From a virus (lineage: Duplodnaviria; Caudoviricetes): a stretch of 64,000 nt of DNA. The notes below the pieces were generated by a model. It ran no database searches and had not been told where the DNA came from. It worked only from the letters and a program-made list of their open reading frames with translations. Each line of letters opens with the position of its first letter. Position 1 is the first letter of the stretch. The DNA is taken from IMG/VR virus record IMGVR_UViG_3300033075_001021. One strand, written 5' to 3'. The position numbers and the translations under genes are program-made. This document shows positions 530 to 53,115 of this stretch, piece after piece.

Positions 530-817
530 GCAATTGCTAAGAACCTGCTTCCAATTGACTTTTTCGCCACAATAAGGGCAGTAAACAAATCTGCTCAAAT
601 ACCCTTTTCTACCATCTACTATTTGACTTTTCGTTTGTGGTTCTCCATTCAATAAGCCATACTTTTTAAAAGTTGGTTGAATGTTTACAATCCTTTCTAC
701 TTCATAATCAATAGTAGATTTGTTTACTTTCTCACCGCTAAGAAATCCTACTAAGCAATCGCAACTGCTTATAACATCGGTTTTGCAATAGTGGGGCTTT
801 TGTGCTTTACTGGTCAT
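524..817 (-). CDS. hypothetical Zn-ribbon protein in cassette
   Basis: CDC ... YCPYCG motif; stops in R'' site. Confidence 0.6.
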   Translation of the reverse strand: MTSKAQKPHYCKTDVISSCDCLVGFLSGEKVNKSTIDYEVERIVNIQPTFKKYGLLNGEPQTKSQIVDGRKGYLSRFVYCPYCGEKVNWKQVLSNCL

Positions 818-875
818 TTGTACTTCTATTTAAGTTTAGTTGTGGGTTGAACATTTGTGCCTTGAAACCCCACCA
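769..875 (-). repeat. truncated attC-like site fused to HAD gene
   Basis: One arm and R' GTTATAA present; other arm stops after CCCCACCA (plus 868-875), where HAD coding sequence continues. Confidence 0.6.
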
Positions 876-1028
876 TCCTTTATGCGGCCAATCTTGTCCT
901 GTTTTTTCTTTATATTGAACATATCCTTTTTCTGGAACAGGTGTGTTTATGAGTGTTCCATCAAAGTCCCAAACACAAATTCGTGTAATATCAGACTTGT
1001 TTTTCTTTATATTTCCAAATGTACCCAT
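807..1028 (-). pseudogene. HAD-family phosphatase N-terminus (RNA-repair HAD-like), truncated
   Basis: WDFDGTL motif I; sequence switches to attC repeat after WPHKGWWG. Confidence 0.65.
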
Positions 1029-1680
1029 ATGCGTATTTTGTTTTTTTTCTTAAATTTGCACTAATATTTTTTCTATCTAAACCTAGTTTATTCTCAACAT
1101 CTTTAGCACTCTTCCATTCTCTAATAAATTCGCCATCTAATGTATATTGTAGAATTGGTTTCTTTCGCCCTTCAGCGTTATTTTTAATCCATTCTTCAGA
1201 TTTTATAATTTTCCGACCAATTGATTTCTCAGCTGCTAATTTTTGTGCTTCAGTAAAACCAACTTTTTTTCTATTTTCAGATATTTTTCTTTTAATTTCA
1301 TCAGAATGTCTTCTTAACTTACTCTTTTCTCCAATTTTTCTTTTTGTTTCTTCACTCATTACTCGGCCAGTACACCCTTCACCACCCAATGTTAAATTCA
1401 TCCCATTAATATTATCTCGATTAAAGCTATTATATAAACCAATATAATAGACTTCCAATTGATTTAACTCAATATCTGAATACACACCTTCTTTTATTAT
1501 TTCAATATTATGTTTATCAAAACCATATTTTTTTAATGAAGAACACAATATTTTTTGAGCGTTACAATTACATTTTTTATAGTCTTTAAATCTTACATCT
1601 AAATTTGTTGTTTTTCCAATGTAAATCTTCCCTGTTGGTGATATAATCTTGTAAATATACCCTTTTTTCATAAGCGACAT
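991..1680 (-). CDS. GIY-YIG homing endonuclease with NUMOD3/NUMOD1 domains
   Basis: GYIYKI..KIYIGKT, NLTLGGEG, SEETKRKI, YGYIWKY. Confidence 0.9.
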   Translation of the reverse strand: MSLMKKGYIYKIISPTGKIYIGKTTNLDVRFKDYKKCNCNAQKILCSSLKKYGFDKHNIEIIKEGVYSDIELNQLEVYYIGLYNSFNRDNINGMNLTLGGEGCTGRVMSEETKRKIGEKSKLRRHSDEIKRKISENRKKVGFTEAQKLAAEKSIGRKIIKSEEWIKNNAEGRKKPILQYTLDGEFIREWKSAKDVENKLGLDRKNISANLRKKTKYAYGYIWKYKEKQV

Positions 1681-1710
1681 TTATTATAAATATGTCGCTT
1701 CTTCTCAAAA

Positions 1711-1815
1711 TCAAAAAATAAGTGTCCCATCAAAATCGAATACAGCGATTCTAGTTATTTGGTCCTTAGATTTACCTTCTTTCAAGATTTCTCTTATTTT
1801 CTTTTTCTCGTTCAT
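1711..1815 (-). pseudogene. orphaned original 5' end of the HAD gene
   Basis: MNEKKKIREILKEGKSKDQITRIAVFDFDGTLIF*, paralogous to ITRICVWDFDGTLI downstream of the endonuclease. Confidence 0.85.
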
Positions 1816-2135
1816 CTGAACAAATTTAACAATTTCGTAATTAATGATTCTTTGTATTTTCCTAAAAGAGTACCATATATCCTCTTTGATGCCGACCCAA
1901 TAAGTTCTTTAGTTATCGGACCGTGAGCATTGATTGTCTGCTTTAGGGCACCATTTATTCGTCGCACATCAAGATTTTTCTCACGCTTGAGCTTATTAAT
2001 GGTGTCTAAATTATCTTTTTCATACATATCAACAATACTTAATATCTTGTCAATATTTGGGGTTGTTTTTGAAAGCTCTAACTCAATCTGTTCTTTTAGC
2101 CTTCCTTTTCTTGTTTTTAAAATATTAAATGCCAT
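1812..2135 (-). CDS. hypothetical protein
   Basis: ORF behind a TAnnTTTG promoter. Confidence 0.7.
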   Translation of the reverse strand: MAFNILKTRKGRLKEQIELELSKTTPNIDKILSIVDMYEKDNLDTINKLKREKNLDVRRINGALKQTINAHGPITKELIGSASKRIYGTLLGKYKESLITKLLNLFR

Positions 2136-2139
2136 GTTG

Positions 2140-2171
2140 CAAATATACGTATTTTATTTTTATTTTCCAAA
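2140..2171 (-). promoter_or_regulatory. Bacteroidota sigma-A type promoter (example of about 20 copies)
   Basis: TTTGGAAAATAAAATAAAATACGTATATTTG = -33 TTTG / -7 TAnnTTTG; similar near 6003, 9855, 14048, 18842, 20091, 23080, 26337, 31163, 35748, 35866, 38821, 45542, 49501, 51044, 53933, 54900, 62747, 63948. Confidence 0.8.
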
Positions 2172-2172
2172 T

Positions 2173-2817
2173 TTAAGGTACAGTATATGGGTCATGGTGT
2201 TGAAATAATTCAGTATTAGCATCCCCCATATATCCTGTTAATCCATCTAGAAATCCAGCGTCTTGCCAACGTCTTATTGTTTCTTCCCTTCTTCTATCCA
2301 TTTCGACTAAATTGATTTCACCATATAAGTTTGGATTTACTTCTACATTAGCATATCTAGCCGAAAGTCTATCTGGTATTTGATGGTCCCATTCAACGGC
2401 TTGTGGTGTTTCCATTACAGGTATATAAGGCGAATAAACATATCCAGCATCCACACCACCCCGATATTGATAATTCAAATAAACCAATTCGCCTCTAGGA
2501 CCTTCCATGGGTTGAACATCAACCAAATCCAACCCTATTGTTCTAGCTGCTACTTGTTGAACAAATGGGAAATACTTACCCTTATCATATTTAGGTGTCC
2601 ACCAATCGTTGAAATTAAATGCTTTGGTGTTGGTTTTAATCCAACTTTTGATATACCATTTAAGGCCCTTCTTATCTAAGCTAAATATTGTTTCAAGTTC
2701 CTTTATAAGGACATAAGAAGGTAAATCAAAATCATTATATAATTGTTGTCTTCTGACTTTGTTTTCTACTATGTGAAAGTGTTCAGATAGGTATCTATGG
2801 ATTAATTTTTTCATCAA
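2173..2817 (-). CDS. short protein carrying T4 gp23-like major capsid protein segments
   Basis: VAARTIGLDLVDVQPMEGPRGELVYLNY, GYVYSPYIPV, RWQDAGFLDGL. Confidence 0.65.
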   Translation of the reverse strand: MMKKLIHRYLSEHFHIVENKVRRQQLYNDFDLPSYVLIKELETIFSLDKKGLKWYIKSWIKTNTKAFNFNDWWTPKYDKGKYFPFVQQVAARTIGLDLVDVQPMEGPRGELVYLNYQYRGGVDAGYVYSPYIPVMETPQAVEWDHQIPDRLSARYANVEVNPNLYGEINLVEMDRRREETIRRWQDAGFLDGLTGYMGDANTELFQHHDPYTVP

Positions 2818-2983
2818 TTCAAATTAATATCTGGGCCAATGGTTGGTTCTTCCTCATTATCGTCAACAATGAGTAATCCTTCAATTATATCCCCATTTTC
2901 ATCCAAAACCCTTACGTCTAATTTACCAATTTTTTCATCATAGTCAATGGTTATAACATATTCACCAAGGTCGATTCTTTTTT

Positions 2984-3226
2984 TCATAGCAATCTAAGTT
3001 TTTCTTGTCGTGATAACTTTTTTATTCGATGTTCTTCCTTAGATGCTTCACTACGGTTTTTAGCCTCAAAAACAGCCCTTAAATGGACAGGGAGCCGCAT
3101 ACGTGTGTATTTAGCTCCCTTACCAGAATTATGCTCTAATAGCCTTCTATTGACGTCTGTGGTTATCCCAGTATAAAGCGTACCATCTTTTTCACATTCT
3201 AAGATGTAAACATACCATTTCTTCAT
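2984..3226 (-). CDS. small GIY-YIG nuclease (UPF0213-like)
   Basis: [31 protein letters not shown]. Confidence 0.85.
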
Positions 3227-3266
3227 ATTATATAAATATGACCTGATGTGCTAAATTTAAGCATAA

Positions 3267-3827
3267 TTAATAATAAATAAATTCTTCATCGACAAATGTT
3301 TCCTCAAATTTTTCCATCCCTTCTTTAAACTCTTTAGTTTGCATGTATGCATTAAGAGCCCTCCACCCCTTAAGTCTTTCCCATTCTTTTTTCTTAATTA
3401 CATACCTAACGTCTTCTGACCAACCTTTTTGCTCAACTATTTTAGCGGCTTCTTTTTCACCATCTTGGAAAGAAAAGAATGTATAATATTTCTCAGCCAA
3501 TCTTAAAACCTCATCTTTAGTTAAAGTTTTCTTTTTAAGATTTAACCCAATGTTTTGTTTTACTTTATCTAAAATGTTTAGCTTCTTGGCTTCAGAATAA
3601 GCGCCTTTATAATTTGTTTGAAAGGCTTTAAGACTTCGGCAATCTTTGGCTAAAAATAAGATATCTTCTTCAGTGTATTGCTTACGCTCACGTTTAGGTT
3701 GTGAAGTATTCTTCCAACCAAAAGTATCACATAACTTCTGAATCAAACCTTTACGCTTTGCCGCAGAATACGCCGCTGGATTATCCTTTTTGAATTCTGT
3801 TAATGACTTATATTTTGACTTTTCCAT
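3267..3827 (-). CDS. helical-repeat putative DNA-binding protein
   Basis: N-terminus paralogous to adjacent ORF; no nuclease motif. Confidence 0.6.
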   Translation of the reverse strand: MEKSKYKSLTEFKKDNPAAYSAAKRKGLIQKLCDTFGWKNTSQPKRERKQYTEEDILFLAKDCRSLKAFQTNYKGAYSEAKKLNILDKVKQNIGLNLKKKTLTKDEVLRLAEKYYTFFSFQDGEKEAAKIVEQKGWSEDVRYVIKKKEWERLKGWRALNAYMQTKEFKEGMEKFEETFVDEEFIYY

Positions 3828-4570
3828 TATTTCTTTTTAATCATATGTGAACAAATTTCATTTAGCCAACCATTTTTTTGCGCACTATTATATGCTGATT
3901 TATTATTTTTCCCCCAATCCCACAACGAATCATATTTTTTTGCTTCTTCAATACATTTTTCTTTAGTCCATTTCATTCTAGGATTAACCATATGTTTTGA
4001 ACATATAGTTAAAAGATTATTATCACATGCAAATTTATATGATGAAGATGATTGTTTTTGCCAGTCGCCCCTTGTTTTATATTTTTTTGCTTCTTCAATA
4101 CATTTTTCTTTAGTCCATTTAATATTCTCTTTACGCTTCTTTATCATATGTTTAATACAATCTTTTAACCAATTATTTCTTCTAGCAGCTTTCATTGAAC
4201 CATTACTATTAATTTGCCATTCTTTTTTTGTTTTATATCTCTTTGCCTCTCTAATACATTTTTCTTTAGTCCAAAAATTAGCAGGTGTATGTTTTTTCTT
4301 TTCCCAATTATTTAATTTACATAATAATTTCTCAATTTTAAATCTTTTAGCCGCACCATAAGCACCAGAATTCCCACTTCTAAACTCATTTAATGTTGCA
4401 TAGTTTTTTGATTCTTCGATACATTCTTTTTTAGTCCATTTTTTCTTTTTAATCCAACCGAATCTTTCACAAATTTCATTAATTAATTTTTGTCTACAAG
4501 CAGCTTGATACGCAGCGGGATTTGCTTCTCGCCATTCTTTAAATGATTTGTATTGTGATTTCTCCATCAT
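3827..4570 (-). CDS. tandem-repeat putative DNA-binding protein
   Basis: Four ~50-aa repeats WTKEKCIEEAKKY. Confidence 0.7.
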   Translation of the reverse strand: MMEKSQYKSFKEWREANPAAYQAACRQKLINEICERFGWIKKKKWTKKECIEESKNYATLNEFRSGNSGAYGAAKRFKIEKLLCKLNNWEKKKHTPANFWTKEKCIREAKRYKTKKEWQINSNGSMKAARRNNWLKDCIKHMIKKRKENIKWTKEKCIEEAKKYKTRGDWQKQSSSSYKFACDNNLLTICSKHMVNPRMKWTKEKCIEEAKKYDSLWDWGKNNKSAYNSAQKNGWLNEICSHMIKKK

Positions 4571-6033
4571 ATGTTACCCCTTGCAGATTCAAATATTTTT
4601 TCTTCGGTCCACTTTTCAATTCCAGATAATACAGCTCGATATTCACCAATAGTTGTGGTTTTATAAATACTAACTGGATTATCCAAATCATGAATGATGT
4701 TCTTAAATAAATCAATTACATCAATTGTAAATTCTGGTAAAATAAATTTTTTATTTGGTTTATTACCGCCCCCAATACCACCGCCAGAAGAACCACCACT
4801 GGTCTTAGTTTGCTTTATAACTGGGATTAACATACCATTAAAATTGCTACCGTTAAAGGTTGACAAGAACTTATTATCTGTCAACATTAATGCACCACAT
4901 ACGCAAGCGTGTGTGAAATCCATAAAACCATATTGCTGTGTAGTAACCTTCAAATAATATTTTTCCATACTAGGGTTACCTCTTAACACCCTTGAAAACA
5001 TTTGATTGATAAGGTTTGGATTGTGGGTACCAGACATATCAATGATATTCCAAAGATTATCGTCTGAATAACCTAATCTAGCTCTATCTACCACAACCAA
5101 TACATCAAATTCATTGTTTTTAAATTTCACTAATTCTGAACTATCAACGTCCCCTTCAGAATGAGAAACACCAACATTAACGTTATGTTTTTTAAGAATA
5201 TTATAAACATCATCAGCTTGTTTTACTGACCTACAAGTTATAAGTGTTTTTCCAAGTTTATTATACGTAAACGCCCAAGATTTAATTTTAGTTAAAAGTG
5301 ATGGGCTATTAAATTCTTCGGGTTTAAATTTCTTCTTAACCCTTTCAATTAACTTAAGAATAATTGATTCAAGTGTTGCTTCAGTATCTTTTTTTGGAAA
5401 CTTATACCTACCCTTAATTTCATAATTACTGTCGATTTGCCCAGTCCAATTGTATTTAGATGCAACCAGTTCAATATTAAGTTTTGCAAAATATTCTGGC
5501 GGTATTGAATTTATTGCCAATGGATAAAGAGGATATCCACCTTTTTTAATGAAAACAGACGGTGTACCAGTTAACAAAATTTGTTTCTTTGGTTTAACCG
5601 TCTCAACAATTTTTTGTACCTGAGGCGCTAAATAATTTTCATGGGCTTCATCCACAATAAGTAAATCATAGTGTCCCTTAATCTTCTTAATTGTTTGTGG
5701 TAAACAAACATGTACTTGAGTGTTTGGATTAAAATTATCTGAATAAGTAAAATTCACATTCACTTCATTCAAACGGTCCATATAATTAGACCTTAAAACA
5801 GTTGTAGAATGAGTTAAAACCAATGCTTTTGCTTTTTGGTTTATTTTAAGATACCTTTGAAGTATATCAATTGATATTTCAGTTTTACCAGCGTTAGGTG
5901 CAAGGCCAAGTACTGACACGCTATTTTTCATTGCAAATTCAACTGCTGGTTCTTGATATGCTCGAAGAATCAAATCTCTTTTCATTATTTTACTTTTAGG
6001 TACAAATATACCAAAAATCATTGACAAAAACAA
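4567..6033 (-). CDS. SF2 helicase/ATPase (ResIII-like); likely start MKRDL ~5985
   Basis: LRAYQE, PNAGKT, IVDEAH, LLTGT, QMFSRVLR. Confidence 0.85.
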   Translation of the reverse strand: MFLSMIFGIFVPKSKIMKRDLILRAYQEPAVEFAMKNSVSVLGLAPNAGKTEISIDILQRYLKINQKAKALVLTHSTTVLRSNYMDRLNEVNVNFTYSDNFNPNTQVHVCLPQTIKKIKGHYDLLIVDEAHENYLAPQVQKIVETVKPKKQILLTGTPSVFIKKGGYPLYPLAINSIPPEYFAKLNIELVASKYNWTGQIDSNYEIKGRYKFPKKDTEATLESIILKLIERVKKKFKPEEFNSPSLLTKIKSWAFTYNKLGKTLITCRSVKQADDVYNILKKHNVNVGVSHSEGDVDSSELVKFKNNEFDVLVVVDRARLGYSDDNLWNIIDMSGTHNPNLINQMFSRVLRGNPSMEKYYLKVTTQQYGFMDFTHACVCGALMLTDNKFLSTFNGSNFNGMLIPVIKQTKTSGGSSGGGIGGGNKPNKKFILPEFTIDVIDLFKNIIHDLDNPVSIYKTTTIGEYRAVLSGIEKWTEEKIFESARGNI

Positions 6034-6056
6034 AATTCTTGCCTATATTTATTCAT

Positions 6057-6404: not shown

Positions 6405-7295
6405 ATGGGGGTTAAGTTGACAACAGAAGAATTTATTACTAGAGTTAAAAAAATACATGGTGATAGATATGACTATTCTAAAGTTAATTACATATCTTTA
6501 GATAAAAAAGTTTTAATTATTGATGAAAACGGCTTCGAACATACTATTCGTCCAGACAATTTAATATCTGGTAATAAATTAAACATTAGAAGCGTAATTA
6601 AAAAAGAAGATTATTTAACACACAAATTCAATACTATTCATCAGGGAAAATATTCATACTACAACTTAAACTATAAAAATGGTGTTGTTACAATAACATG
6701 TAACACACACGGTAATTTTACTCAAACAGTTGACAATCATTTAAAGGGTAAAGGTTGCCCAAAATGTAAGGGTAAAAATAAAACAACAAGTGACATTATT
6801 ATAGAATTTAACAAAATACATAAAAACAAATATGATTATTCATTGGTCAAGTACAACGGAATAAAAAATAAAGTAACTATTATTTGTCCAAAGCATGGAA
6901 ACTTTAATCAAACACCTGAAGAACATATAAATGGTTGTGGTTGTCCTATTTGTAAAACATCAAAAGGAGAAAAATATATTGCTGAATTATTAGATAGCAA
7001 TAATATTAAATATATTCCCCAACATAGATTCCAAAATTGTAAAAATATATTACCATTACCGTTTGATTTCTATTTGCCTGATTTTAATACATGTATTGAA
7101 TACCATGGTGAACAACATTATAGACCAATTCAACATTTTGGTGGTATTAAAAAATTTAACCTAACAAAAAAAAGGGATGCGATTAAAAAAGAATATTGTG
7201 ATAACAATTGGATTAACCTTATTATAGTTCCATTTAATCAGACTTCAAAATTAGATATAACCAAGCTTACCCATAATTTTTTTAATCTCGTCTAG
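6405..7295 (+). CDS. homing endonuclease (YDYS/CPxHG repeats plus PD-(D/E)XK/Vsr-like domain)
   Basis: KYDYSLVKY..ICPKHG..GCPIC; LPFDFYLP..CIEYHGEQH. Confidence 0.8.
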   Translation: MGVKLTTEEFITRVKKIHGDRYDYSKVNYISLDKKVLIIDENGFEHTIRPDNLISGNKLNIRSVIKKEDYLTHKFNTIHQGKYSYYNLNYKNGVVTITCNTHGNFTQTVDNHLKGKGCPKCKGKNKTTSDIIIEFNKIHKNKYDYSLVKYNGIKNKVTIICPKHGNFNQTPEEHINGCGCPICKTSKGEKYIAELLDSNNIKYIPQHRFQNCKNILPLPFDFYLPDFNTCIEYHGEQHYRPIQHFGGIKKFNLTKKRDAIKKEYCDNNWINLIIVPFNQTSKLDITKLTHNFFNLV

Positions 7296-9395: not shown

Positions 9396-9850
9396 TAAAA
9401 ATGTAATTTTTGTTTTGCTAAGGTTATATTTGAATATTCTTTAACTCCTGTTATTTCTGGACCAAACCAACCAATCGGTTTGAAAGTATCGCAATCCTCT
9501 TGAGACTTAAATTCAACTTCAGCGACAGTTAAACCATTAGGATATGTATCTACATCAACAACATAATTTCCATTGTGTGGAGATAACGTAGTTCTTATCT
9601 TTTCTAATTTATATTTACATTTGCTTAGGATTTCAAGAGCATCAATTAGAGGGATTTCATATTCGTATTCATCCCTGACTTTGTTTTTGGTGTATTTAAG
9701 ACAGAGAAAAGCTTTGTGGTCTATCACCCTAACCCTCAACTGTTTATTTTTATCTAACAAAACATACCCCTGTTTGATAAGTTTTTGTTCTCCTAAATTT
9801 GGTGATATCTCAGTCTCAATCAAAAACTTACGTTCAATTTCTTTTGCCAT
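9395..9850 (-). CDS. CYTH domain protein
   Basis: EIERKFL, LRVR, AEVEF. Confidence 0.85.
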   Translation of the reverse strand: MAKEIERKFLIETEISPNLGEQKLIKQGYVLLDKNKQLRVRVIDHKAFLCLKYTKNKVRDEYEYEIPLIDALEILSKCKYKLEKIRTTLSPHNGNYVVDVDTYPNGLTVAEVEFKSQEDCDTFKPIGWFGPEITGVKEYSNITLAKQKLHF

Positions 9851-9902
9851 GTTACAAATATACTAATTATTTTTGTAAGTAGCAAATAAAACACTAAAAA
9901 AA

Positions 9903-11495
9903 TTATTGCAATGTTGTATATTCACCGTTAATAAAGTTGATATGCTGTGCTTTACCATCATTGTGAATGATAACGTGTGACTGTAACCAAGAACTAGGTC
10001 CATGGTTGTAGTTTACCCTTAATGTTGTTGAAGTACCAACAGCCAATGCGCCGTCTTTACGACCTGGTGAGTGATAGTGGCCAACAATAATTTTAGTGTT
10101 TAATTTTCTAAATTGAAGAAGTGAACCACGACTTCCATTAGAGCCAATGTCACCATGTTGTCCAAGCTCCCAATTTTTTACCCTATATGATGAACGTCTA
10201 CCAAGTGTAATAAATTTTGGATACTTCTGATTAATTATTGCTGGAATAACACCTTTAACATCATATGGATTTTGTGCATATTGCTTTAACAACATTGCAC
10301 TGTATTCCATGTATGCAACAGAATTTTTTGTTGTTGGTTGTTTTTTCCAATCTTCATTTTTAAGCCAACGGTCTAAAAAGTCGTCATGGTTGCTTCTAAC
10401 AATAACAACATTTTTGTATTTCTCAAAAGGTTTTAGACCATTTAACATGTCATTGATTTCCTTTTCAATGGAGTTGGTACCGTGAATTTCCTTCGCATAT
10501 TGAATGAATGGGTCTTTTAATTCATGATGACTAATTGAATATCCATCAAAGACATCGTGAAGAACAACATGTTCTGGAACCAATTTATCCATCAACTCGA
10601 CTGTTTTATCTAATACCTCTTGGTCATGATGTCCATAGTGAATATCGCCTAGAATAATTGCAGCAACACTATCTGTTTTGTTTACTTGACCATTTTCAAC
10701 CTTATAAAATAAATCTGTAAATGCACCCGTTTTATCGTCAGCTGTTACTTGTCTAACAAAGAATGTTTCCTTGTCTTTAATTTCAACAATAACAAAACCA
10801 AATACATGATGAAACTCACCTTTTTTACCAGATTTTGAATCGGTATAATTCATCTGTGTAACGGCGCCAGTAGTTAACATCATCTTGGGTTTGTTGCCCT
10901 CAAGAACTGGAATCATTTCCAATTGTACTTTTGGTGAACCAAACACACAAGAGTTTATACCACTCATACCCTGCAATCCACTCATAGGATTAGTTGCTGT
11001 TGGTTGAATCTTAACATCGGACATAACAGAAACATACTTATGTATATTATGTCTGTTTGCATCCAAATATGGTGCGACTTCATCAACCCAATAATCTTCT
11101 TCCCTATCTGAAAATACACTGGTTGGGTTTTTGTATCTACCTGCTATAACATGGATGTCTGCCTCAATAAATTCAGCATAAGCTTTCATGTTATCAAAAA
11201 ACTTTGAATGAACAGGTGTATTGTTTTGTGCCCATGTTATGATAAAGCGTGATTTTGTTTTATCTGCTTTTCTCTTTTTGGCTTGTTCGTATTGTTCTGA
11301 TTCAATTTCAGGTTTTTCTTTAAAGCCTAATTTTTTAAACCATTTACGAACAGTTCTTTCAGAAACATTAAATTCGTTACCTAAATTTATTGCTAATTTT
11401 TCAACAGTTAAATTATTAATTAGTCTATTATCATATTCTAATTTAAACCGTTTAATTAAATCATCAGTTAAATCTTTGAACTTAAATTTATTCAT
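9903..11495 (-). CDS. metallophosphoesterase-fold nuclease (T5 A1-like) with N-terminal HTH
   Basis: GDIH, HDVFD, SNHD, GHYH motifs. Confidence 0.65.
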   Translation of the reverse strand: MNKFKFKDLTDDLIKRFKLEYDNRLINNLTVEKLAINLGNEFNVSERTVRKWFKKLGFKEKPEIESEQYEQAKKRKADKTKSRFIITWAQNNTPVHSKFFDNMKAYAEFIEADIHVIAGRYKNPTSVFSDREEDYWVDEVAPYLDANRHNIHKYVSVMSDVKIQPTATNPMSGLQGMSGINSCVFGSPKVQLEMIPVLEGNKPKMMLTTGAVTQMNYTDSKSGKKGEFHHVFGFVIVEIKDKETFFVRQVTADDKTGAFTDLFYKVENGQVNKTDSVAAIILGDIHYGHHDQEVLDKTVELMDKLVPEHVVLHDVFDGYSISHHELKDPFIQYAKEIHGTNSIEKEINDMLNGLKPFEKYKNVVIVRSNHDDFLDRWLKNEDWKKQPTTKNSVAYMEYSAMLLKQYAQNPYDVKGVIPAIINQKYPKFITLGRRSSYRVKNWELGQHGDIGSNGSRGSLLQFRKLNTKIIVGHYHSPGRKDGALAVGTSTTLRVNYNHGPSSWLQSHVIIHNDGKAQHINFINGEYTTLQ

Positions 11496-12387
11496 TTGAT
11501 TTTAATTTTAATATTTTCATTATTTTTTTAACGTTCTCATTATACTTTATTATTATTAACCTGATATTATTTTTTTCACAATATACTTTTTTAATAATGT
11601 CTTTTTTTTGCTGTTCTTTAAAACGTTTTTCACCTCCAAAATAATCAATAGCTTTATAGTGTTGTATTCCATTATATTCTATACATGTGTTATAATCAGG
11701 TAAATAAAAGTCAAATGGTAATTTAAGTTTATATTTACATTTATCAAATTTATATTGTGGGATAAAATTAACCGAAAAATTATTTAATAACTCTCTAATT
11801 TTATTTTCGCCTTTAGATTCTTTACAATATGGGCATTTTTGGCCCTTTAAATGATTTTGTGGTGTTTGTTCAAATTCACCATGAATCGGACAAATTATTT
11901 TTACTTTAGTTCCAAAACCAAAATATTCAACATTAGAATAATCATATTTATCGCTATGAATTAATTTTGCTTTTTCAACAAATTTATTTATTTTTGTCTT
12001 TCTTTTGATAAAAGAACACAACTCACAATCTTTACCTTTTAGATGGTTTGATGGAGTTTGTTCAAATTCACCATGAACAGGACAAATTATCTTTACTTTA
12101 GTGTCATAATTAATATATCTAACTTTAGAATAATCGAATTTGTTATCATGAATTAATTTACCTTTCTTAATAAAATCATTTATGGATATTTTTTGCTTAT
12201 CTTGTGAACATTTAGAACATCCATAACCACTTAAATGACCACTAGCTCTTTGTTCAAATTCGCCATGAATTGGACAAATTATTTTTACTTTAAATTTACT
12301 TTCTGTATAATCAACTAGTGAATAATCATATTTATCACCATGAATTAATTTTGCTTTTTGAATGAATTTTAGATTTTTATTTATCAT
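11488..12387 (-). CDS. homing endonuclease (YDYS/CPxHG repeats plus PD-(D/E)XK)
   Basis: Three KYDYS..ICPIHGEFEQ repeats; LPFDFYLP..IEYNGIQH; paralog of 6405-7295. Confidence 0.8.
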   Translation of the reverse strand: MINKNLKFIQKAKLIHGDKYDYSLVDYTESKFKVKIICPIHGEFEQRASGHLSGYGCSKCSQDKQKISINDFIKKGKLIHDNKFDYSKVRYINYDTKVKIICPVHGEFEQTPSNHLKGKDCELCSFIKRKTKINKFVEKAKLIHSDKYDYSNVEYFGFGTKVKIICPIHGEFEQTPQNHLKGQKCPYCKESKGENKIRELLNNFSVNFIPQYKFDKCKYKLKLPFDFYLPDYNTCIEYNGIQHYKAIDYFGGEKRFKEQQKKDIIKKVYCEKNNIRLIIIKYNENVKKIMKILKLKSNE

Positions 12388-12409
12388 AATTTTCTTTTAT
12401 GATAAATAT

Positions 12410-12577
12410 CTAAATAAAACTAAAAAGACAAAGTTTAAACCACTTACGGACAGTCCTTTCTGATTTACCAAATAAAGCCATGAGTTTTTTCATTCTATCA
12501 TCCCATGACAATTCTTTGTCGGTGTAGACAGTTTTAGCTTCTTGGATTTGTTCTTGTGTTAATTCAGTAAACTTCAT
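12410..12577 (-). pseudogene. orphaned original 5' end of the A1-like gene
   Basis: MKFTELTQEQ...GKSERTVRKWFKLCLFSFI*, matching NVSERTVRKWFK in 9903-11495. Confidence 0.85.
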
Positions 12578-12598
12578 TTTAACGGGTTTAGTAAAATC

Positions 12599-12973
12599 TT
12601 ATTGTTCATCAGACTTTTTCTTTTTCCAAGAAAATCTTTGATGAAACTTAGCACGATAATCACCAGTTTCAAATCCTTGGGTTCTTAATATAACCTCAAG
12701 GGCCAATGGAAGTTCGGACAATAACTTATCAAATTCATCCTTTTTTTCTTGGCTTATTGTTGGTAATTCGTCTGTAAAAGCTGGGTCAAAATCATCTGGC
12801 TTACCATTAAGTATCAAATCCATGTCTTCATAAACATCATCCCCACCAAATGGAGACTCGTCTCTTAAAAAATCTTCAGCCGATGTAATGAATCTATTAA
12901 GATGCAGCGACCAATTCATTGCCCTTAATAAAGCAATGTGTTCTTGTTTTAATGTAAAATTTAATATGCTCAT
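12599..12973 (-). CDS. hypothetical protein
   Basis: ORF in operon, overlapping stop/start. Confidence 0.7.
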   Translation of the reverse strand: MSILNFTLKQEHIALLRAMNWSLHLNRFITSAEDFLRDESPFGGDDVYEDMDLILNGKPDDFDPAFTDELPTISQEKKDEFDKLLSELPLALEVILRTQGFETGDYRAKFHQRFSWKKKKSDEQ

Positions 12974-13668
12974 AGTTCGTTATTCATGATTTTATTTACA
13001 ACTTCGGTTACACCTTCAACAGCTTTCTTCTTAACATAAGTTATATCCAATCCCCATCCTTGAAGCGCTGGGCTTGGGTTAGGGTCAATATAAATAACCT
13101 TTGCTTTAGGGTCTGCCGTTCCTACCATTCCAGATGTATAACTTATATCAAAGCCAGTGCCTATAACCAAAACGTAATCACATTTACGTAATGCTGCGTA
13201 TGCTTCTTCAACTTCAAAAGGATATTCACCAAACAAAACCAAATGTGGTCTTAGTTGAGACCCTCTCGGACATTTATCACCCATTTTGATGTCCTCTTTG
13301 CAATCGTATAAAAACTTAGGGCTAAAAGTACCCCTCATTTTTCTTAAATCACCGTGAAGATGTAATACATTAGAGGACCCACCACGTTCATGGAGGTCAT
13401 CAACATTTTGTGTGATAACAGTAACATCAAAGCGTTCTTCCAATTTGGCTAATGCTTTATGTGCATCATTGGGTTCAACGGTAGCCAATGCCTTTCGTCT
13501 TTCATTATAAAAACCCAGAACCTTTTCAGGTGTTTTGCGCCAAGCCTCAATCGTTGCGACCTCATCAATTTTATAGTTGTACCATAAGCCGTCCTTAACA
13601 TCCCTAAATGTTGGTATGCCACTTTCTTGGCTGATTCCAGCCCCAGTAAACACTGCTATCTTTTTCAT
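12970..13668 (-). CDS. cobB: Sir2/CobB NAD-dependent deacylase
   Basis: GAGISQESGIPTFR, TQNVDDLHERGG, HLHG. Confidence 0.9.
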   Translation of the reverse strand: MKKIAVFTGAGISQESGIPTFRDVKDGLWYNYKIDEVATIEAWRKTPEKVLGFYNERRKALATVEPNDAHKALAKLEERFDVTVITQNVDDLHERGGSSNVLHLHGDLRKMRGTFSPKFLYDCKEDIKMGDKCPRGSQLRPHLVLFGEYPFEVEEAYAALRKCDYVLVIGTGFDISYTSGMVGTADPKAKVIYIDPNPSPALQGWGLDITYVKKKAVEGVTEVVNKIMNNEL

Positions 13669-14042
13669 TAGAATTTCCCTTTAATTTGTTTTTGTGTTAA
13701 TAATTCTTCAGCTCTCTTTTCAACTTCTTCCTTAAATTTTCTTGTGATTAGCATATCACAAATCTTTTCAGCTGTTTGGTCTATTTTATAATTGATAAAC
13801 GATTCAGCATCTTTTTCAAACGTTTTGAAGTTCTCTTCGATTTGTTTGGTTAAATCATCTTCAATTTTTTTAATTACACGGTGAGATAAAAGTTTATACT
13901 CATGTTCAAGCATTTCATGTATGACTGACCTAGTTTCTTGTTTGGTTACAACCAAAATATCACCATTAGCATCACGTATTTGTATATAGTCGCTAGCTTC
14001 AAGGCGTTTAAGTCTTTGTGGTATTGGTTTTTGTCTTGGCAT
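13668..14042 (-). CDS. hypothetical protein
   Basis: ORF behind promoter. Confidence 0.65.
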   Translation of the reverse strand: MPRQKPIPQRLKRLEASDYIQIRDANGDILVVTKQETRSVIHEMLEHEYKLLSHRVIKKIEDDLTKQIEENFKTFEKDAESFINYKIDQTAEKICDMLITRKFKEEVEKRAEELLTQKQIKGKF

Positions 14043-14073
14043 AATACAAATATACCAATAAAACTTTAATTTA

Positions 14074-14349
14074 TCAAGTCTTTTCAGGCATTAAAGTTTC
14101 ATAACAACCAATTTTATCCCTGACTTCCTCTAAACGAGAATCATTTTTACAGTACAATACCGAATAGTTCATATGCACCTGAATCTCACCAGAATCAATT
14201 TTATCAAAGACCTCTTCAAGGTCTTCTTTATTAAAGAAGATTGATTCTTGTCCACCCCAATCTTGTCTGAATAAAAGGTAATCATAAGATAGGTCATGTT
14301 TGGGCCCGTCGCCACTACCATATCGATTTTCTAAATAGTATCGTTTCAT
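14074..14349 (-). CDS. hypothetical protein
   Basis: ORF in operon. Confidence 0.6.
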   Translation of the reverse strand: MKRYYLENRYGSGDGPKHDLSYDYLLFRQDWGGQESIFFNKEDLEEVFDKIDSGEIQVHMNYSVLYCKNDSRLEEVRDKIGCYETLMPEKT

Positions 14350-14903
14350 AGCATAAAACCAATTGGGTCTTTAATAAAGCTTTCCCACTGTGCTTTTTCT
14401 TGACGAAGGTCTTCACGAACATCCGTTATCACCTCACCAAGCCAGTTGGTACCTTGCCATTGTGATTCATCATGAACACGTGGGTCACTTTCAGCTAAAC
14501 CAATACCCCAGATTTTATCTTCTGGACTTGCTTCAACAAGAAGAGTGTCACCAGTTGCCATTAAATCATCATAGTAATGTTTATGTTGTGTGAATTTAGC
14601 TTGATTAGCACGATACACAACACTCTTAGCTACTGATTCCCATCGGTCCTTATCAAAATCCTTCACCCTACGACCTAACGCTTTCTGTTCATATGGCTGT
14701 TCAGCTTTCATTATCGCTTCATAAGATTCCATATCTTTAAAGGTAAGAGCTTTTTGTGCCATCATGTATTGCTCACAGCAATTGTATTTTACCCCGTCTA
14801 TGAGGATTTCAGCGGGTGCCCATTGACTGAACGGGCCACCCCAAAAGAATGTATATTTTTCCATATTAACTTGTTTTAAAACCGATTCCACTGGTTCTGT
14901 CAA
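14346..14903 (-). CDS. NADAR (YbiA-like) hydrolase; likely start MEKYTFF
   Basis: FSQW, EQYMMAQKA, LVEASPEDKIWGIG, GTNWLG. Confidence 0.9.
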   Translation of the reverse strand: MTEPVESVLKQVNMEKYTFFWGGPFSQWAPAEILIDGVKYNCCEQYMMAQKALTFKDMESYEAIMKAEQPYEQKALGRRVKDFDKDRWESVAKSVVYRANQAKFTQHKHYYDDLMATGDTLLVEASPEDKIWGIGLAESDPRVHDESQWQGTNWLGEVITDVREDLRQEKAQWESFIKDPIGFML

Positions 14904-16182: not shown

Positions 16183-16186
16183 ATTC

Positions 16187-16774: not shown

Positions 16775-16779
16775 AATCT

Positions 16780-18316: not shown

Positions 18317-18368
18317 ACATTTATTTAACAATAAATATATCTTGCCAATTAAAAAGTTAAAATATTTT

Positions 18369-18437
18369 TCAAACAAATCTGCAACCTGCAAACCAATGTA
18401 CAAAAATGATTGTGAATATTTCGGCAAAGTTTAACAT
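18369..18437 (-). pseudogene. orphaned original 5' end of the DUF3307 gene
   Basis: MLNFAEIFTIIFVHWFAGCRFV* vs MWELNFIEIFTILATHFIGDF. Confidence 0.75.
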
Positions 18438-40203: not shown

Positions 40204-40701
40204 TTAAAGATTTTTTACGTACTCAACGGTGATATCATTTTTCTTAATAAATCCTCTTAATTGTTCAAATGCTAATAAACTTGGTGGTTCACTCATTTCA
40301 TCGTCATTTTGGGGTAGATTATGAGGTATTGATACTTCTATTTTAATCAAGGATTTACTGATATCGACACCCATTGGGTATTTGAGTAAACTTACCCTTT
40401 CTTCAGATTCGTCTTCTTTACCCCTACCATAACCAGCCCTAACATCAGCATATGATTGTAATCTATATCTATTTGATAATGAATTACCATCAATAGTAAT
40501 TCTAACCTGCATTGGTATAGAATAAGACTTAAACCATTTATTTCTAGTAAAAGAAACATATGGTTGAATACTAGATGTTAATTTAAAATCATTTGCTATT
40601 ATTCCCATTAAACCACGATAGTTTGTAAAGTGATATAAAGGGCCAATATTTTTACCCTCTAATAACCCCTCTCTCAATAATTGTTTAATTAAATCTTTCA
40701 T
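40204..40701 (-). CDS. hypothetical protein (possible ADP-ribosyltransferase-like fold)
   Basis: LYHFT, VSFTR, ESEER; N-terminal LREGLLE motif. Confidence 0.5.
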   Translation of the reverse strand: MKDLIKQLLREGLLEGKNIGPLYHFTNYRGLMGIIANDFKLTSSIQPYVSFTRNKWFKSYSIPMQVRITIDGNSLSNRYRLQSYADVRAGYGRGKEDESEERVSLLKYPMGVDISKSLIKIEVSIPHNLPQNDDEMSEPPSLLAFEQLRGFIKKNDITVEYVKNL

Positions 40702-41273
40702 TATATATCAATCATTTTAAGTTTTCCCATTTTATCGTATGCAACATTTCCAATATGAAGGTCCAACGGCCTTCCAAGGTCTTTTTCAATTATTGGTGCA
40801 ACGGCTCTTAAAAATTTTGCCCATCTATAAAGAATAGATAATATAAATGGATTATCACCATTATCCGCTGCATCAATAACAGTATTAAAACACTCCCCCT
40901 CAAAAAAATTATTTATTGTAATAAAACCATTACTGCAAGATATTTCACCAGATAGGTTCAATAAAAATCTATCTATTTCATTTAATTCATATGCGGCCTC
41001 TGCTGTTTTTAATTTTTCAATCTCAACAACTGTTAATGTTGGGTCTTTTCTAAATGGAAAAGTACGATAGACTTTAGGAAAGTATTTTGGATTCTCTTGG
41101 AATGTACTTAGCCACTCATGCACCGTATCTTCATCACCAATCTTAAAAAGTCTGTCTGGATATTTGTTTGATGCATAAACCTTATGATAAGCGCCCTTAC
41201 CAAATTCTTTTTTTGGTTTAATTGACATCTCTTCTAATGATTCCCTAAGATATGTCCTAATCCATTGTTTCAT
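40701..41273 (-). CDS. kinase-like protein
   Basis: GKGAYHKVY, DLHIGNV, KMIDI. Confidence 0.7.
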   Translation of the reverse strand: MKQWIRTYLRESLEEMSIKPKKEFGKGAYHKVYASNKYPDRLFKIGDEDTVHEWLSTFQENPKYFPKVYRTFPFRKDPTLTVVEIEKLKTAEAAYELNEIDRFLLNLSGEISCSNGFITINNFFEGECFNTVIDAADNGDNPFILSILYRWAKFLRAVAPIIEKDLGRPLDLHIGNVAYDKMGKLKMIDI

Positions 41274-41860
41274 TATATGTCAATTATTTTTATATTCTTA
41301 TTCATATCATATGCAACATTCTGAGAGTGTAAATCTCTGTCAAAATAGTCATATTTATTTTCCAAATACTTATACATCGTGTAAATTGTTTTGGTCCATT
41401 TTAAAATCTTTTTCATATCCGCATCACTAGGTCGTATTTCATTTAAGTAAACCTTAAAATCCCTTAAAAACCCCATATGTCCATTTGGGTAATAGTTATC
41501 AATTTTATGAATATGGAGCAAGCTATAAGCACCTTTAGGAAAATTTTTAATTACTTGATTTACCATATCAAAATCGGCTTTAGCATTTACAGTGTCTAAT
41601 TTTTCTATTTCAGCAATATAGTAATAAGGATTTTTTTTTGATGGGAAAATACGATAGACTTTAGGGAATATTTTCGGATTTTCTTGAAATATCTTTGACC
41701 AAAACTCTACATCATTTTTTCTCCCGATTTTATATAATCTATCAGGGTGTTTATGTGACTTCAAAACAGTGTGCTGTACCCCACTACCAAATATTGGTTT
41801 TGGGGTTATGGATACTTCCTCCAAGGACTCTTTTAAACGTTGTTTAATCCATTGTTTCAT
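41273..41860 (-). CDS. kinase-like protein (tandem paralog)
   Basis: GSGVQH, DLHSQNV, KIIDI. Confidence 0.7.
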   Translation of the reverse strand: MKQWIKQRLKESLEEVSITPKPIFGSGVQHTVLKSHKHPDRLYKIGRKNDVEFWSKIFQENPKIFPKVYRIFPSKKNPYYYIAEIEKLDTVNAKADFDMVNQVIKNFPKGAYSLLHIHKIDNYYPNGHMGFLRDFKVYLNEIRPSDADMKKILKWTKTIYTMYKYLENKYDYFDRDLHSQNVAYDMNKNIKIIDI

Positions 41861-43140: not shown

Positions 43141-43857
43141 TTAATTTTTATATTTCCATATAAAACCACATGCTGTTTTAGTTAATCCTCGACAACAATT
43201 TCTACAATTAATTTTAAGTGTCCTATACACATCCATTGTTGATTCCCATTCTTTAATGAATTCACCAGCTATTGTATATTGTAAGACCCTTTTTTTATTC
43301 GCTTTTTCTGATAATATTTTTTTCGTTTTTTCTGAGTGATTTTTATTGAAGAAAGGGTTGTTATGCTTAGTTCTTTTACTACCCTTAAATGGATTATTAT
43401 CTCTAAAATATGTATTATGATTTAATAACCATTTTGTTTTTTTCTCTATAACCTCTTCATCGGTTAATCCTTTTTCCTTCCAAATATCTTCAAATGTTTT
43501 GCCGTACATTGGATTATTAGCACCGCTAACGTCTACGTGATTGAATGACATTTTTAACTTTGTTCTATCGTTATGTTTATTTCCTTCCATTGGAGAGGTT
43601 TCTCCACCGATAAGAATATTATATCCAATTGCTTTATTTTGACTGTTAAGTTTATTAACCCAAAATTTTTCTTTTTGATTTAACTCTTCAATATTCGAGG
43701 CAAAATCTATTATTTCTTTCTTAAAATTTTTCCTACCATATTTTTTTATCGCTTCTTTCAAAAGTTTACCGCCACCTAAATAATATTCATTATTTTTGCT
43801 ATCCTTACCAATATAGATTTTACCATTAACTAAATTTGTTGTTTTGTATATCACCAT
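43141..43857 (-). CDS. GIY-YIG homing endonuclease (NUMOD3/NUMOD1)
   Basis: IYKTTNLVNGKIYIGK, GYNI, NNPMYGK. Confidence 0.9.
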   Translation of the reverse strand: MVIYKTTNLVNGKIYIGKDSKNNEYYLGGGKLLKEAIKKYGRKNFKKEIIDFASNIEELNQKEKFWVNKLNSQNKAIGYNILIGGETSPMEGNKHNDRTKLKMSFNHVDVSGANNPMYGKTFEDIWKEKGLTDEEVIEKKTKWLLNHNTYFRDNNPFKGSKRTKHNNPFFNKNHSEKTKKILSEKANKKRVLQYTIAGEFIKEWESTMDVYRTLKINCRNCCRGLTKTACGFIWKYKN

Positions 43858-48072: not shown

Positions 48073-48080
48073 ACGAATTT

Positions 48081-48422: not shown

Positions 48423-48427
48423 GATTT

Positions 48428-49495: not shown

Positions 49496-49533
49496 AGTTG
49501 CAAATATACGATTTTATTGTGAATAAATCAAGT

Positions 49534-50913: not shown

Positions 50914-51080
50914 CTTTTTTATATCGATTTTTTTTAACGATTATTGTTGCAGATTGATTTTTATCTGGTTTGGTTGTTTTTATTGATATCACTCGCATAT
51001 TCATGACAGTCGATATATCAATTGGTTTTTTGTTCTTCATATGCAAATATATGGGGAATCTTTCGATTCCCCAAATTTTT

Positions 51081-52214
51081 TTACAACATTTTGTACAATT
51101 TTTTATCATCGTACTCCATCATGTATTCCTTTATGGTTCCAACCTTGCCTGTTTGAAGTGCGAAATACAAGCCTGTAAAGGAATCCAGACCCATTTTCTT
51201 TGTAACTTCGAATACCGCAGTAGCATACGCTTTCCTTTCGGCAGCTGTTATGTTCTTTGGCTTTCTTGGTTCCAATTCAACCCAAGCTTCGTTAAGCTTA
51301 GCTATCAACGCATCGTAGCTAGCCTTTAACCTGAAGATTTCTTCACGTCTTTCTGGGAAAGTCGCAGCAAATTCTTCGATTTCATTGGCTTTAACGACAG
51401 TCAATATGTTATGCTCAGCAGTTTTTGACTTTAAGTGGTGAACCGCAACATACGCTGGGTTCTTGATTTTAACACGATTGAAGTTACCGTCCACAACCAC
51501 ATAACCTTCTTCAGACCATGGCATACCTTCAAATGTTCTTATCAAAGCACCGAAGTCCTTTGCGTTCAAATCAAAAGCTTTAACCAACGGGATACCAGTC
51601 AACAAAGAAAAGTTTTTCAACACTTCATAGTTGTCCTCAACCAAAGTTTCTGCATTTCTTGCGGCCAATAATGTAATAGATGATTCACCGTGAGGCTTTA
51701 CTACTATATTATATGGTGTTGTTAATTCAAATACAAAGGTTGTTTTCTTGAAAGACTTGAACAATGATTTCTCAATATTATACTTTTCTTTCAATACCTT
51801 CCAGAATAACTCATTGAAAGTAGTTCCCATCTTGTTGTTTACTTCCCCTTCACCTTCAGCAGTACCAGTAGTTGCAGCAAACCATTCTTGCTTATGCCAA
51901 TCCCAATAAACTTGAATCATTGTACCATCGACTTTTTCAAGTACAACGGCAGAATTCCAGTCTATCTTAGCGGCTTGTGATTCACCGTGATTGAAGAACT
52001 TTCTGAATGACATAGACATAACCTTCCATGTATCCCTTTCAAGAATAAGACCACGACAGTCTTGTACCTCTGGGCATGACATATCAGATTCAATTTGGTC
52101 ATATTTCAAATGAATCTTTGAGGTATATGTACGACATTTTAATTTAAAATCTTGTATTGCCTTAGCTAACCCAAATTTTTTTATATACTTAACTACTGAT
52201 AACTCCTGTATCAT
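51081..52214 (-). CDS. Rnl1 (T4 RnlA-like) RNA ligase
   Basis: DCRGLI, KFFNHGE, EKVDGT, FEL, EGYVV, RVKIKN. Confidence 0.9.
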   Translation of the reverse strand: MIQELSVVKYIKKFGLAKAIQDFKLKCRTYTSKIHLKYDQIESDMSCPEVQDCRGLILERDTWKVMSMSFRKFFNHGESQAAKIDWNSAVVLEKVDGTMIQVYWDWHKQEWFAATTGTAEGEGEVNNKMGTTFNELFWKVLKEKYNIEKSLFKSFKKTTFVFELTTPYNIVVKPHGESSITLLAARNAETLVEDNYEVLKNFSLLTGIPLVKAFDLNAKDFGALIRTFEGMPWSEEGYVVVDGNFNRVKIKNPAYVAVHHLKSKTAEHNILTVVKANEIEEFAATFPERREEIFRLKASYDALIAKLNEAWVELEPRKPKNITAAERKAYATAVFEVTKKMGLDSFTGLYFALQTGKVGTIKEYMMEYDDKKLYKML

Positions 52215-52938
52215 TATTTCTTTTTTTATGTGACTCTGAAATTTTTCTTTTTGTTTCTTCACTCAAAACACGCCCACTTCTTTTTTTACTTTGTTCAATT
52301 TTTAATTGTATTGCCGCATCAACACCCATAATTTCTTCATACGTTTTACCTTTATTCGGATTTTTCCACCCTTTTCTAGCCTTAGATAAACTTTCTTTAT
52401 GTTTATCTGACATTGGTTTTTTCTTTCCTTTATTAGATTCTGAAATTTTTCTTTTTGTTTCCTCACTTAAAGGACGAAATTTTTTCTTTTTACCTTTTAA
52501 TAATTCCGACATTTTTTTTGCTGTTTCTGATGCCCACGGTTTTTGTTTTCCTTTATGTGCATCACTTATTTTTTTCTTATGTTCATCAGTTAATTTTTTA
52601 CCTTTATGAAATTTTGAAACATTAGCTCGAAGAACTTCTTTTTTAGGGTTATTTGAAAATGTATCACCCCCAGTGCCCCCCTCTGCAATATTATAACCAC
52701 CAATATTTTTACTAATAAACTCTTTTTCTTTTTCGTTTAAAGTATCGATATTGTCACATTCAAATATTATTTCCCATTTAAAATTATGAAAACCATATTT
52801 TTTAATCGCATTATAAAATAACCATTTCTTTTTATTAAAGGCTAATTTATGTGATTGTATTCTTTTTTCTAATGTCCCCTTTGTTTTACCAATATAAAAT
52901 TTACCATTTATTGTGTTGGTTGCTTTGTAAATTATCAT
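52189..52938 (-). CDS. GIY-YIG homing endonuclease with NUMOD3 repeats
   Basis: IYKATNTINGKFYIGKT, GYNIAEGG, SEETKRKISES repeats. Confidence 0.9.
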   Translation of the reverse strand: MIIYKATNTINGKFYIGKTKGTLEKRIQSHKLAFNKKKWLFYNAIKKYGFHNFKWEIIFECDNIDTLNEKEKEFISKNIGGYNIAEGGTGGDTFSNNPKKEVLRANVSKFHKGKKLTDEHKKKISDAHKGKQKPWASETAKKMSELLKGKKKKFRPLSEETKRKISESNKGKKKPMSDKHKESLSKARKGWKNPNKGKTYEEIMGVDAAIQLKIEQSKKRSGRVLSEETKRKISESHKKRNNDTGVISS

Positions 52939-52995
52939 AGATTTTAATTTATATTATGTTATATAATATAAATATACTCAAATTGTAATTTAGTT

Positions 52996-53115
52996 TCATG
53001 AACCACAAACATATTTCAAATGAATCTTGTTTTCATACACTTTAGCCTTAAGCTTGAATTTTTCAATAGCTTTAGCTAAACCATTTTCCTCAATAAATTT
53101 TATTATCGCTAACAT
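52996..53115 (-). pseudogene. orphaned original 5' end of the Rnl1 gene
   Basis: MLAIIKFIEENGLAKAIEKFKLKAKVYENKIHLKYVCGS*; 19-bp direct repeat at 52100-52118 and 53010-53028. Confidence 0.9.

Follow-up and report, generated by a model that had tools for sequence, protein, structure and literature searches.

Four loci in a 64,000-nucleotide (nt) stretch of viral DNA (Caudoviricetes; IMG/VR record IMGVR_UViG_3300033075_001021), referred to here in its full length as the window, carry a putative homing endonuclease gene (HEG) lodged inside the start of another gene. Each nuclease has the displaced native 5' end of the host gene (the orphan) on one side and a diverged substitute 5' end, fused to the gene body, on the other. 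We put the probability that the four loci are mobile homing cassettes that replace a gene 5' end at roughly 0.85. The host genes encode a HAD-type protein (case 1), an A1-like protein (case 2), a DUF3307 protein (case 3), and an Rnl1-type RNA ligase (case 4), with coordinates given in Table 1. By comparative data the proposed mechanism is well supported for A1, has good support for Rnl1, and is plausible for DUF3307 and HAD.

An earlier reading of the window (the original prediction) had proposed one layout common to all four cases, and this is borne out both by the sequence itself and by self-comparison. The gene-start duplications lie where they were predicted, all on the minus strand, and an all-vs-all self-comparison of 2470 stop-to-stop segments of the window recovers the pairs with E-values of 7.6e-11 (Rnl1), 8.8e-6 (A1), 3.7e-5 (HAD), and 2e-3 (DUF3307). 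These are the only gene-start duplicates among the segments to flank a nuclease open reading frame (ORF); the remaining local self-matches come from tandem paralogues, transfer RNA (tRNA) genes, and the zinc-finger repeats of the nucleases. The order at each locus is an orphan of 22-55 codons with its stop, a leader of 22-57 nt, the nuclease ORF, and the new ATG of the host gene, which falls 8-38 nt within the 3' end of the nuclease ORF in a different frame. The claim that the new N-terminus is fused to the rest of the gene holds for A1, DUF3307, and Rnl1, where the host gene is full length (three cases out of four), and fails for HAD, where only a stump follows. None of the four is intergenic or splits a gene without duplication, as classical free-standing HEGs do. 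The same arrangement, two copies of a gene end flanking an endonuclease ORF inside a coding gene, is found in the related contigs L002, L003, L040, L094/L095, and L239.

The clearest comparisons come from A1. The window A1-like protein is 62-77% identical to the A1 proteins of 80 IMG/VR contigs (sizes up to 362 kb) and 43-47% identical to those of Cellulophaga phages phi17:2 and phi4:1 and Maribacter phage Panino, which are relatives at the protein level only; from these identities, the window would appear to derive from a large uncultured phage, probably of Flavobacteriia. (A megablast search of window positions 1-6000 against GenBank phages gave no match.) Names such as L003 refer to related viral contigs. 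About 70 of the 80 related A1 loci have a single A1 gene with an orphan-like start (type A) and the junction peptide RKWCSEKL, and three, L002, L003, and L040, repeat the whole A1 layout of the window; their start is of type B, with RKWFKKL or RKWFTRL at the junction. L003 and L007 are about 99.9% identical, with six scattered single-nucleotide polymorphisms in approximately 5 kb outside three insertions, plus three clustered wobble changes adjoining the third. At A1, L003 has 1091 nt (leader, nuclease, and new A1 start) in place of 7 nt in L007. The L003 orphan equals the L007 A1 start at 169 of 169 nt, while the new A1 start of L003 has only about 40% protein identity to the L007 start. L003 and L007 thus present the filled and empty states of one A1 site, and the discrete insertion is visible directly.

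In a maximum likelihood tree of the A1 body, built with the N-terminal columns removed, the four cassette carriers are spread over three or more separate, well-supported positions, each beside cassette-free genomes, so that at least three changes are needed. L003 is sister to L007 (99% amino acid identity) and L002 groups with L022/L023 (95%). Orphans match their nearest cassette-free neighbour at 100%, 94% (L002 against L022), and 82% of nucleotides, and the divergence among them equals that among unrelated native starts. For pairs among the window, L002, and L040, nucleotide identity is 82-84% in the nuclease gene and 83-91% in the new start, vs 67-70% in the orphan and 71-77% in the body. 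The left junction sequence is common to L002, L040, L003, and the window, and such shared junctions and boundaries argue for homology-driven copying over repeated illegitimate events. A ratio of nonsynonymous to synonymous substitution (dN/dS) of 0.14-0.18 points to purifying selection on the new start. It would appear from these comparisons that the A1 cassette was acquired in at least three separate A1 lineages, with orphans that track the host background; it is present or absent as a unit, with the same boundaries, in different backgrounds. The endonuclease and a 60-residue ORF upstream of A1 in Maribacter phage Panino were considered as a further case; the ORF is not an A1 orphan.

For Rnl1, the nearest relative is L082, which has no nuclease and whose flanking genes show 78-80% protein identity to those of the window. 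The window orphan aligns with the L082 start from upstream of the ATG to the LKY codons (86% amino acid identity) and then diverges, and the new copy in the window shows about 60% nucleotide identity to L082 before the junction and about 90% after it. An exact 19-nt repeat marks both junctions (52100-52118 and 53010-53028). At the same Rnl1 codon, L094/L095 carry a 63%-identical GIY-YIG gene flanked by an orphan and a new start. Comparison with endonuclease-free alleles in related phages had been suggested as a check on the original prediction, and the empty A1 site of L007 and the match between the L082 start and the Rnl1 orphan now provide it; the core of that prediction, a nuclease that travels with a substitute gene start without splicing, is supported by these relatives. 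That the displaced copy is native and the copy in use foreign and diverged holds for both A1 and Rnl1.

The same comparison is a weak test for DUF3307 and HAD, whose relatives are distant. The closest relative for DUF3307 is L128 (85% protein identity in the upstream gene), in which DUF3307 abuts the upstream gene with no nuclease between them; the orphan matches the L128 start over about 15 codons. The HAD duplication covers catalytic motif I, and its two motif I copies differ at four wobble positions. Homology of the window HAD gene to a gene of about 170 residues in L207 stops after codon ~51, at position ~877, and the remaining 115 residues are found nowhere in the window. In L239, a relative of the HEG1 nuclease (54% identical) follows a decayed orphan of 14 codons that stops at DFD, and its 3' end overlaps the start of a complete HAD-type gene; by its sequence, L239 appears to be the intact state of the HAD-type cassette.

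The proposed homing cassette consists, in order, of a few codons with a stop, a short leader with the phage's gene-start motif, the nuclease gene, and the diverged, foreign first 15-55 codons of the target gene. During a mixed infection the nuclease would cut the intact native allele near the later junction. The break would then be repaired from the cassette-bearing genome, with homology provided upstream by the orphan and downstream by the gene body, and the cassette would be copied in. The recipient's own start would become the new orphan, and the gene would be read from the imported start, which differs from the native target sequence and hence is presumably left uncut. Activity of the nucleases and cutting at this position are presumed; resistance of the replacement allele is suggested by clustered, partly synonymous differences at the junctions. 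Nuclease and host gene are presumably co-transcribed and translationally coupled.

Several observations weigh against this reading. The window HAD gene looks, from its sequence, to be a non-functional 5' stump, so the case 1 cassette would no longer protect anything. No second carrier of the DUF3307 cassette was found among 80 related loci. The Rnl1 cassettes of the window and L094 share 63% amino acid identity and their ligase bodies 66%; being no more alike than the bodies, the cassettes do not support a recent transfer there. Over the 19 nt that precede the junction the new Rnl1 allele equals the native sequence, and it is native-like downstream, so resistance would require that the determinants of recognition or cleavage lie further upstream than those 19 nt. 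Determinants that far away would fit GIY-YIG enzymes of the I-TevI type. L005/L006 (4001-4160) have a type B A1 start with no nuclease and no orphan directly upstream, reflecting either loss of the nuclease, with the resistant allele left behind, or an ancestral donor lineage. Finally, the relatives compared are metagenomic assemblies, all of them.

Of the competing explanations, the one that survives best treats the loci as one-off repair scars, in which free-standing endonucleases, ordinarily intergenic, were captured a single time each through aberrant, one-sided, or end-joining repair; the duplicated gene start would play no part in later spread, and the layout would be passed on by vertical inheritance only. 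Any model needs an illegitimate first event, and both the solitary DUF3307 case and the Rnl1 cassettes, as diverged as their host genes, are what such scars would leave. Independent scars would not share junctions, however, and this weakens the explanation, since at least three lineages share the boundaries of the A1 cassette and have orphans that match the local background. The A1 cassette is also 10-15 percentage points more similar between genomes than its flanks are, and L003 departs from its near-identical partner L007 by three precise cassette insertions. We regard repair scars as improbable.

Mobile end-replacing cassettes are preferred even more strongly over a history in which a gene start was duplicated in place and diverged, and a nuclease then landed between the copies, leaving the upstream copy as a decaying paralogue. 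Tandem paralogues do occur in the window (41273-41860 with 40701-41273, and 3827-4570 with 3267-3827). However, the downstream copy is the foreign one: it is the L003 orphan that fully matches the sole copy in L007, and the Rnl1 orphan, not the new start, that matches the nearest relative. The L003/L007 and window/L082 comparisons already appear to contradict duplication in place, which is very unlikely.

Still less credible is a self-splicing intron, an intein, or a translational bypass that joins the orphan to the gene body, with the duplicated start being incidental. Splicing elements exist in this phage group, as split inteins interrupt Rnl1 at the KxDG motif in L124 and L117. However, an Rfam search of the whole window at gathering thresholds found tRNAs only and no intron, and a search at E <= 1 of positions 1-2300 and 9800-18600 (cases 1-3; case 4 was covered at gathering thresholds only) gave chance-level matches and nothing intron-like. 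Thus no ribozyme core of a group I or group II intron-encoded HEG is detected by Rfam at the sequence level, and the 22-57 non-coding nt per cassette leave too little room for one, just as had been predicted. The junctions lack intein motifs, each orphan closes with a stop, and the new starts bring an ATG of their own and show apparent purifying selection. A chimeric assembly of two co-occurring strains could in principle give false duplications in metagenomic data such as these, but the layout recurs in independent samples and assemblies (A1 in L002, L003, and L040; Rnl1 in L094/L095; HAD in L239) and occurs four times in one contig, in different genes and with different nuclease families, so that an artefact has a negligible chance of being the explanation.

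The nucleases belong to several families. HEG1 and HEG4 score above the Pfam gathering thresholds for GIY-YIG and NUMOD1/NUMOD3, in agreement with the original prediction of GIY-YIG members. HEG2 has three zinc-ribbon repeats (DUF4379/DUF723) followed by a domain that finds only noise by sequence in PDB and Pfam, with no profile match above threshold. An AlphaFold model of HEG2 (predicted local distance difference test, pLDDT, 81.7) places this C-terminal domain close to I-Bth0305I (3r3p) and Vsr (1cw0), with a Foldseek probability of 1.00 but E-values of only 0.03-0.07, and with target template modelling (TM) scores of 0.65 and 0.48, respectively. Residues D226, E237, and H243 are invariant across nine homologues. 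The modelled structure suggests that the domain is a Vsr-like PD-(D/E)XK fold. HEG3 matches the PHROG HNH/endonuclease VII families 3322, 374, 3118, and 1035 (E-values 1.7e-22 to 5.6e-11) and has no match in Pfam; its start is taken as ATG 18316, an alternative TTG at 18427 having been rejected.

The HEG2 family, with zinc-ribbon repeats and a Vsr-like domain, has members in many cultured jumbo phages, whose hosts are Yersinia, Klebsiella, Escherichia, and Salmonella; a single Klebsiella or Yersinia jumbo phage genome can hold as many as 15. These cultured phages are candidates for laboratory tests of end replacement. The window itself has a HEG2 paralogue (46% identical) on the opposite strand at 6405-7295 (+), beside which a 3' end orphan was sought and none found. 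It also has an additional GIY-YIG gene at 43141-43857 (-) that looks intergenic. No duplicated gene end was detected for either.

The leaders of the cassettes share the motif ATATTTAT. It occurs 32 times in the window against 11 +/- 3 expected, a three-fold enrichment, with 26 of the 32 copies on the coding strand. About 17 copies lie 4-15 nt upstream of the ATG of an ORF, a usual placement that makes the motif look like the phage's own gene-start or promoter signal. The original prediction had counted a TATTTAT motif as part of the layout; the motif is indeed present before the nuclease ORFs, but as a general gene-start motif, not as one specific to the cassettes. In cases 1-3 and in the leader of gene 43141-43857, ATATTTAT sits in or beside the 5' arm of a hairpin, and the nuclease AUG is covered or adjoined by the 3' arm. 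The fold z-scores of these leaders lie between -3.9 and -4.9, with -4.9 for case 1, -4.85 for case 2, and -3.9 for case 3, and the case 2 hairpin folds also in L002 and L040. The case 4 leader hairpin is not significant (z -0.7). By analogy, a hairpin over the nuclease AUG might provide timing control of the kind known from T4.

Replacement by nuclease cassettes is seen at gene 3' ends as well, in L003 when compared with L007. At L003:2072-2902 a GIY-YIG gene lies at the end of the gene upstream of A1, whose 3' end is replaced, and at L003:5567-6555 an antisense HEG2 paralogue lies 21-33 nt before the A1 stop, with the A1 3' end replaced. Both leave the native 3' end downstream as an orphan. 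Beside the latter, three consecutive wobble positions are changed in DNA that is otherwise identical. Together with the A1 5' end cassette, L003 has three nuclease cassettes within 4.5 kb, all absent from L007. From these sequences it would appear that either end of a gene can be replaced.

The principle itself is not new outside phages. It is known for gene 3' ends in fungal mitochondria and from the WHO elements of yeast; apparently new are its occurrence in phage, its use at the 5' end, and the involvement of several nuclease families. In fungal mitochondria, mobile ORFs (mORFs) make "gene hybrids" of Allomyces macrogynus atp6, Rhizopus atp9, Mortierella cox2, and Glomus atp6, atp9, cox2, and nad3 (PMC3630166 and work cited there). 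As in the window, an endonuclease ORF (GIY-YIG members are included) enters a gene along with a foreign, diverged gene end and without splicing, and the displaced native end, no longer translated, remains as a duplicate matching close relatives (PMC3630166). The mORFs replace the 3' end, while the window cassettes replace the 5' end, so a start codon and expression signals have to come with the phage cassette as well; versions resembling mORFs in acting at the 3' end are present in L003. Unlike the mORFs, the phage nucleases include a predicted Vsr-like PD-(D/E)XK type and an HNH type. The WHO elements of Torulaspora and Lachancea yeasts are relatives of HO (Coughlan et al. 2020, PMC7282813). 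They too home without splicing, each integration replacing the end of the target gene (FBA1 in yeast), and their cleavage is allele-specific (PMC7282813). They differ in being nuclear and eukaryotic, with an intein-derived LAGLIDADG-type nuclease, in acting on the 3' end only, and in that cleavage has been demonstrated by experiment, whereas the phage cassettes are known from sequence.

Among phages, a close comparison is with Seg and Mob of T4-type phages. These free-standing endonucleases, of the GIY-YIG and HNH kinds, are spread when a nearby gene is cut and the DNA around it is co-converted (PMC2988022). Their genes are intergenic or break a gene into two parts that both work (mobE/nrdA, mobA/39-60, seg43), whereas the window cassettes lie inside a gene whose start is duplicated. 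T4-type endonucleases are expressed from middle or late promoters of their own, with the translation start masked by hairpins (PMC2988022); the leader hairpins described here resemble this promoter-in-hairpin control, by analogy only. This review of T4-type intronless homing makes no mention of duplicated or replaced gene ends, and phage reviews describe intron, intronless, and collaborative homing along with gene-splitting insertions, with end replacement absent. In fractured genes (Dassa et al. 2009, PMC2677866), split inteins accompany a free-standing endonuclease; an endonuclease gene likewise lies within a coding gene that stays functional, but function is restored by protein trans-splicing, with no duplication, where the window has a substitute gene end. 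We found no published phage example of end-replacing cassettes, which is weak evidence, as subscription journals lay mostly outside the search.

We lean toward the view that end-replacement homing is a general, previously undescribed fourth mode in phages, beside intron, intronless, and collaborative homing. It would use at least three unrelated nuclease families and act on both gene ends, with the stranded native end as the homology arm for the next invasion, with promoter-in-hairpin control of its own, and with a translationally coupled start. If true, the cassettes would keep supplying phage genomes with chimeric genes and short orphan ORFs. Selfish nucleases could enter the most conserved parts of coding sequence (HAD motif I, the RNA ligase start) without an intron or intein. 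End replacement would account for many of the short ORFs annotated as "hypothetical" and for apparent fragments of genes in phage genomes, and would give mosaicism a concrete mechanism by which phages swap gene ends. With it, a principle described in fungal mitochondria (1990s) and in yeast WHO/HO elements would reach bacterial viruses and the 5' ends of genes. The filled and empty alleles, being almost identical, fix the target sites to within a few bases, such that cleavage and homing assays can be designed directly.

Table 1. Positions of the cassette parts, host genes, and HAD-truncating element in the window
Case	Feature	Positions	Strand	Remarks
1	Orphan, native HAD-type 5' end	1711-1815	-	34 codons through motif I (DFDGTLI), then stop
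1	Leader	1672-1700	-	ATATTTAT at 1686-1693 in 9-bp hairpin; 3' arm has HEG1 AUG
1	HEG1	991-1680	-	GIY-YIG with NUMOD1/NUMOD3 (Pfam); 229 aa
1	Replacement HAD 5' end	878-1028	-	Start at 1028, 38 nt inside HEG1; homology stops at ~877
	HAD-truncating element	522-877	-	356 nt; ~60-nt leader and 97-aa Cys-rich ORF; separate from cassette
2	Orphan, native type A A1 5' end	12410-12577	-	55 codons; homology stops just past RKW codons
2	Leader	12378-12408	-	ATATTTAT at 12402-12409 overlaps 5' arm of 12-bp hairpin; 3' arm has HEG2 AUG
2	HEG2	11488-12387	-	Three zinc-ribbon repeats and Vsr-like/I-Bth0305I-like PD-(D/E)XK domain (predicted); 299 aa
2	Imported type B A1 start	11334-11495	-	About the first 54 codons
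2	A1-like gene	9903-11495	-	530 aa, full length; start codon overlaps HEG2 stop by 8 nt
3	Orphan, native DUF3307 5' end	18369-18437	-	22 codons, ~15-17 homologous
3	Leader	18315-18340	-	ATATTTAT at 18331-18338 in 5' arm of 11-bp hairpin abutting HEG3 AUG
3	HEG3	17747-18316	-	His-Me/HNH-type endonuclease (PHROG matches); 189 aa
3	DUF3307 gene	17364-17759	-	131 aa, full length; start overlaps HEG3 3' end by 13 nt
4	Orphan, native Rnl1 5' end	52996-53115	-	39 codons; homology stops past LKY codons
4	HEG4	52189-52938	-	GIY-YIG with 4x NUMOD3 (Pfam); 249 aa; preceded by ATATTTAT at 52968-52975
4	Rnl1-type RNA ligase	51081-52214	-	377 aa, EKVDG motif intact; ATG at 52214, 26 nt inside HEG4

Rnl1 is interrupted in another way in related phages, where it is broken directly after the catalytic KxDG motif (L124:2322-4846 and L117:2924-4852). 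The upstream part goes on DG|C.. and the downstream part restarts after ..VHN|S; in L124 a 305-residue ORF lies between the two. By sequence, this appears to be the split-intein arrangement of a "fractured gene", as described by Dassa et al. 2009 (PMC2677866).

The 356-nt element that truncates the HAD gene recurs in about 10 otherwise unrelated viral contigs at 91-98% nucleotide identity, and its first 106 nt are found at 85-96% identity in about 20 more, with a sharp boundary at 877 throughout. The element has no Rfam match, and the fold of the 877-771 segment is not significant (z -0.2). From its distribution it looks like a highly promiscuous small gene cassette.

The genes of the window are on the minus strand nearly throughout, with a G+C content of 30-42%. 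There are 56 tRNA genes between 21620 and 61169, on one strand, and pairs with the same anticodon are frequent among them. Several class I tRNA types (Lys, Thr, Glu, Asp, Val, Cys, Asn, Ile, and His) are 84-91 nt long vs the usual ~75, a length that suggests insertions or small introns, and one tRNA in the window is called with a two-base anticodon.

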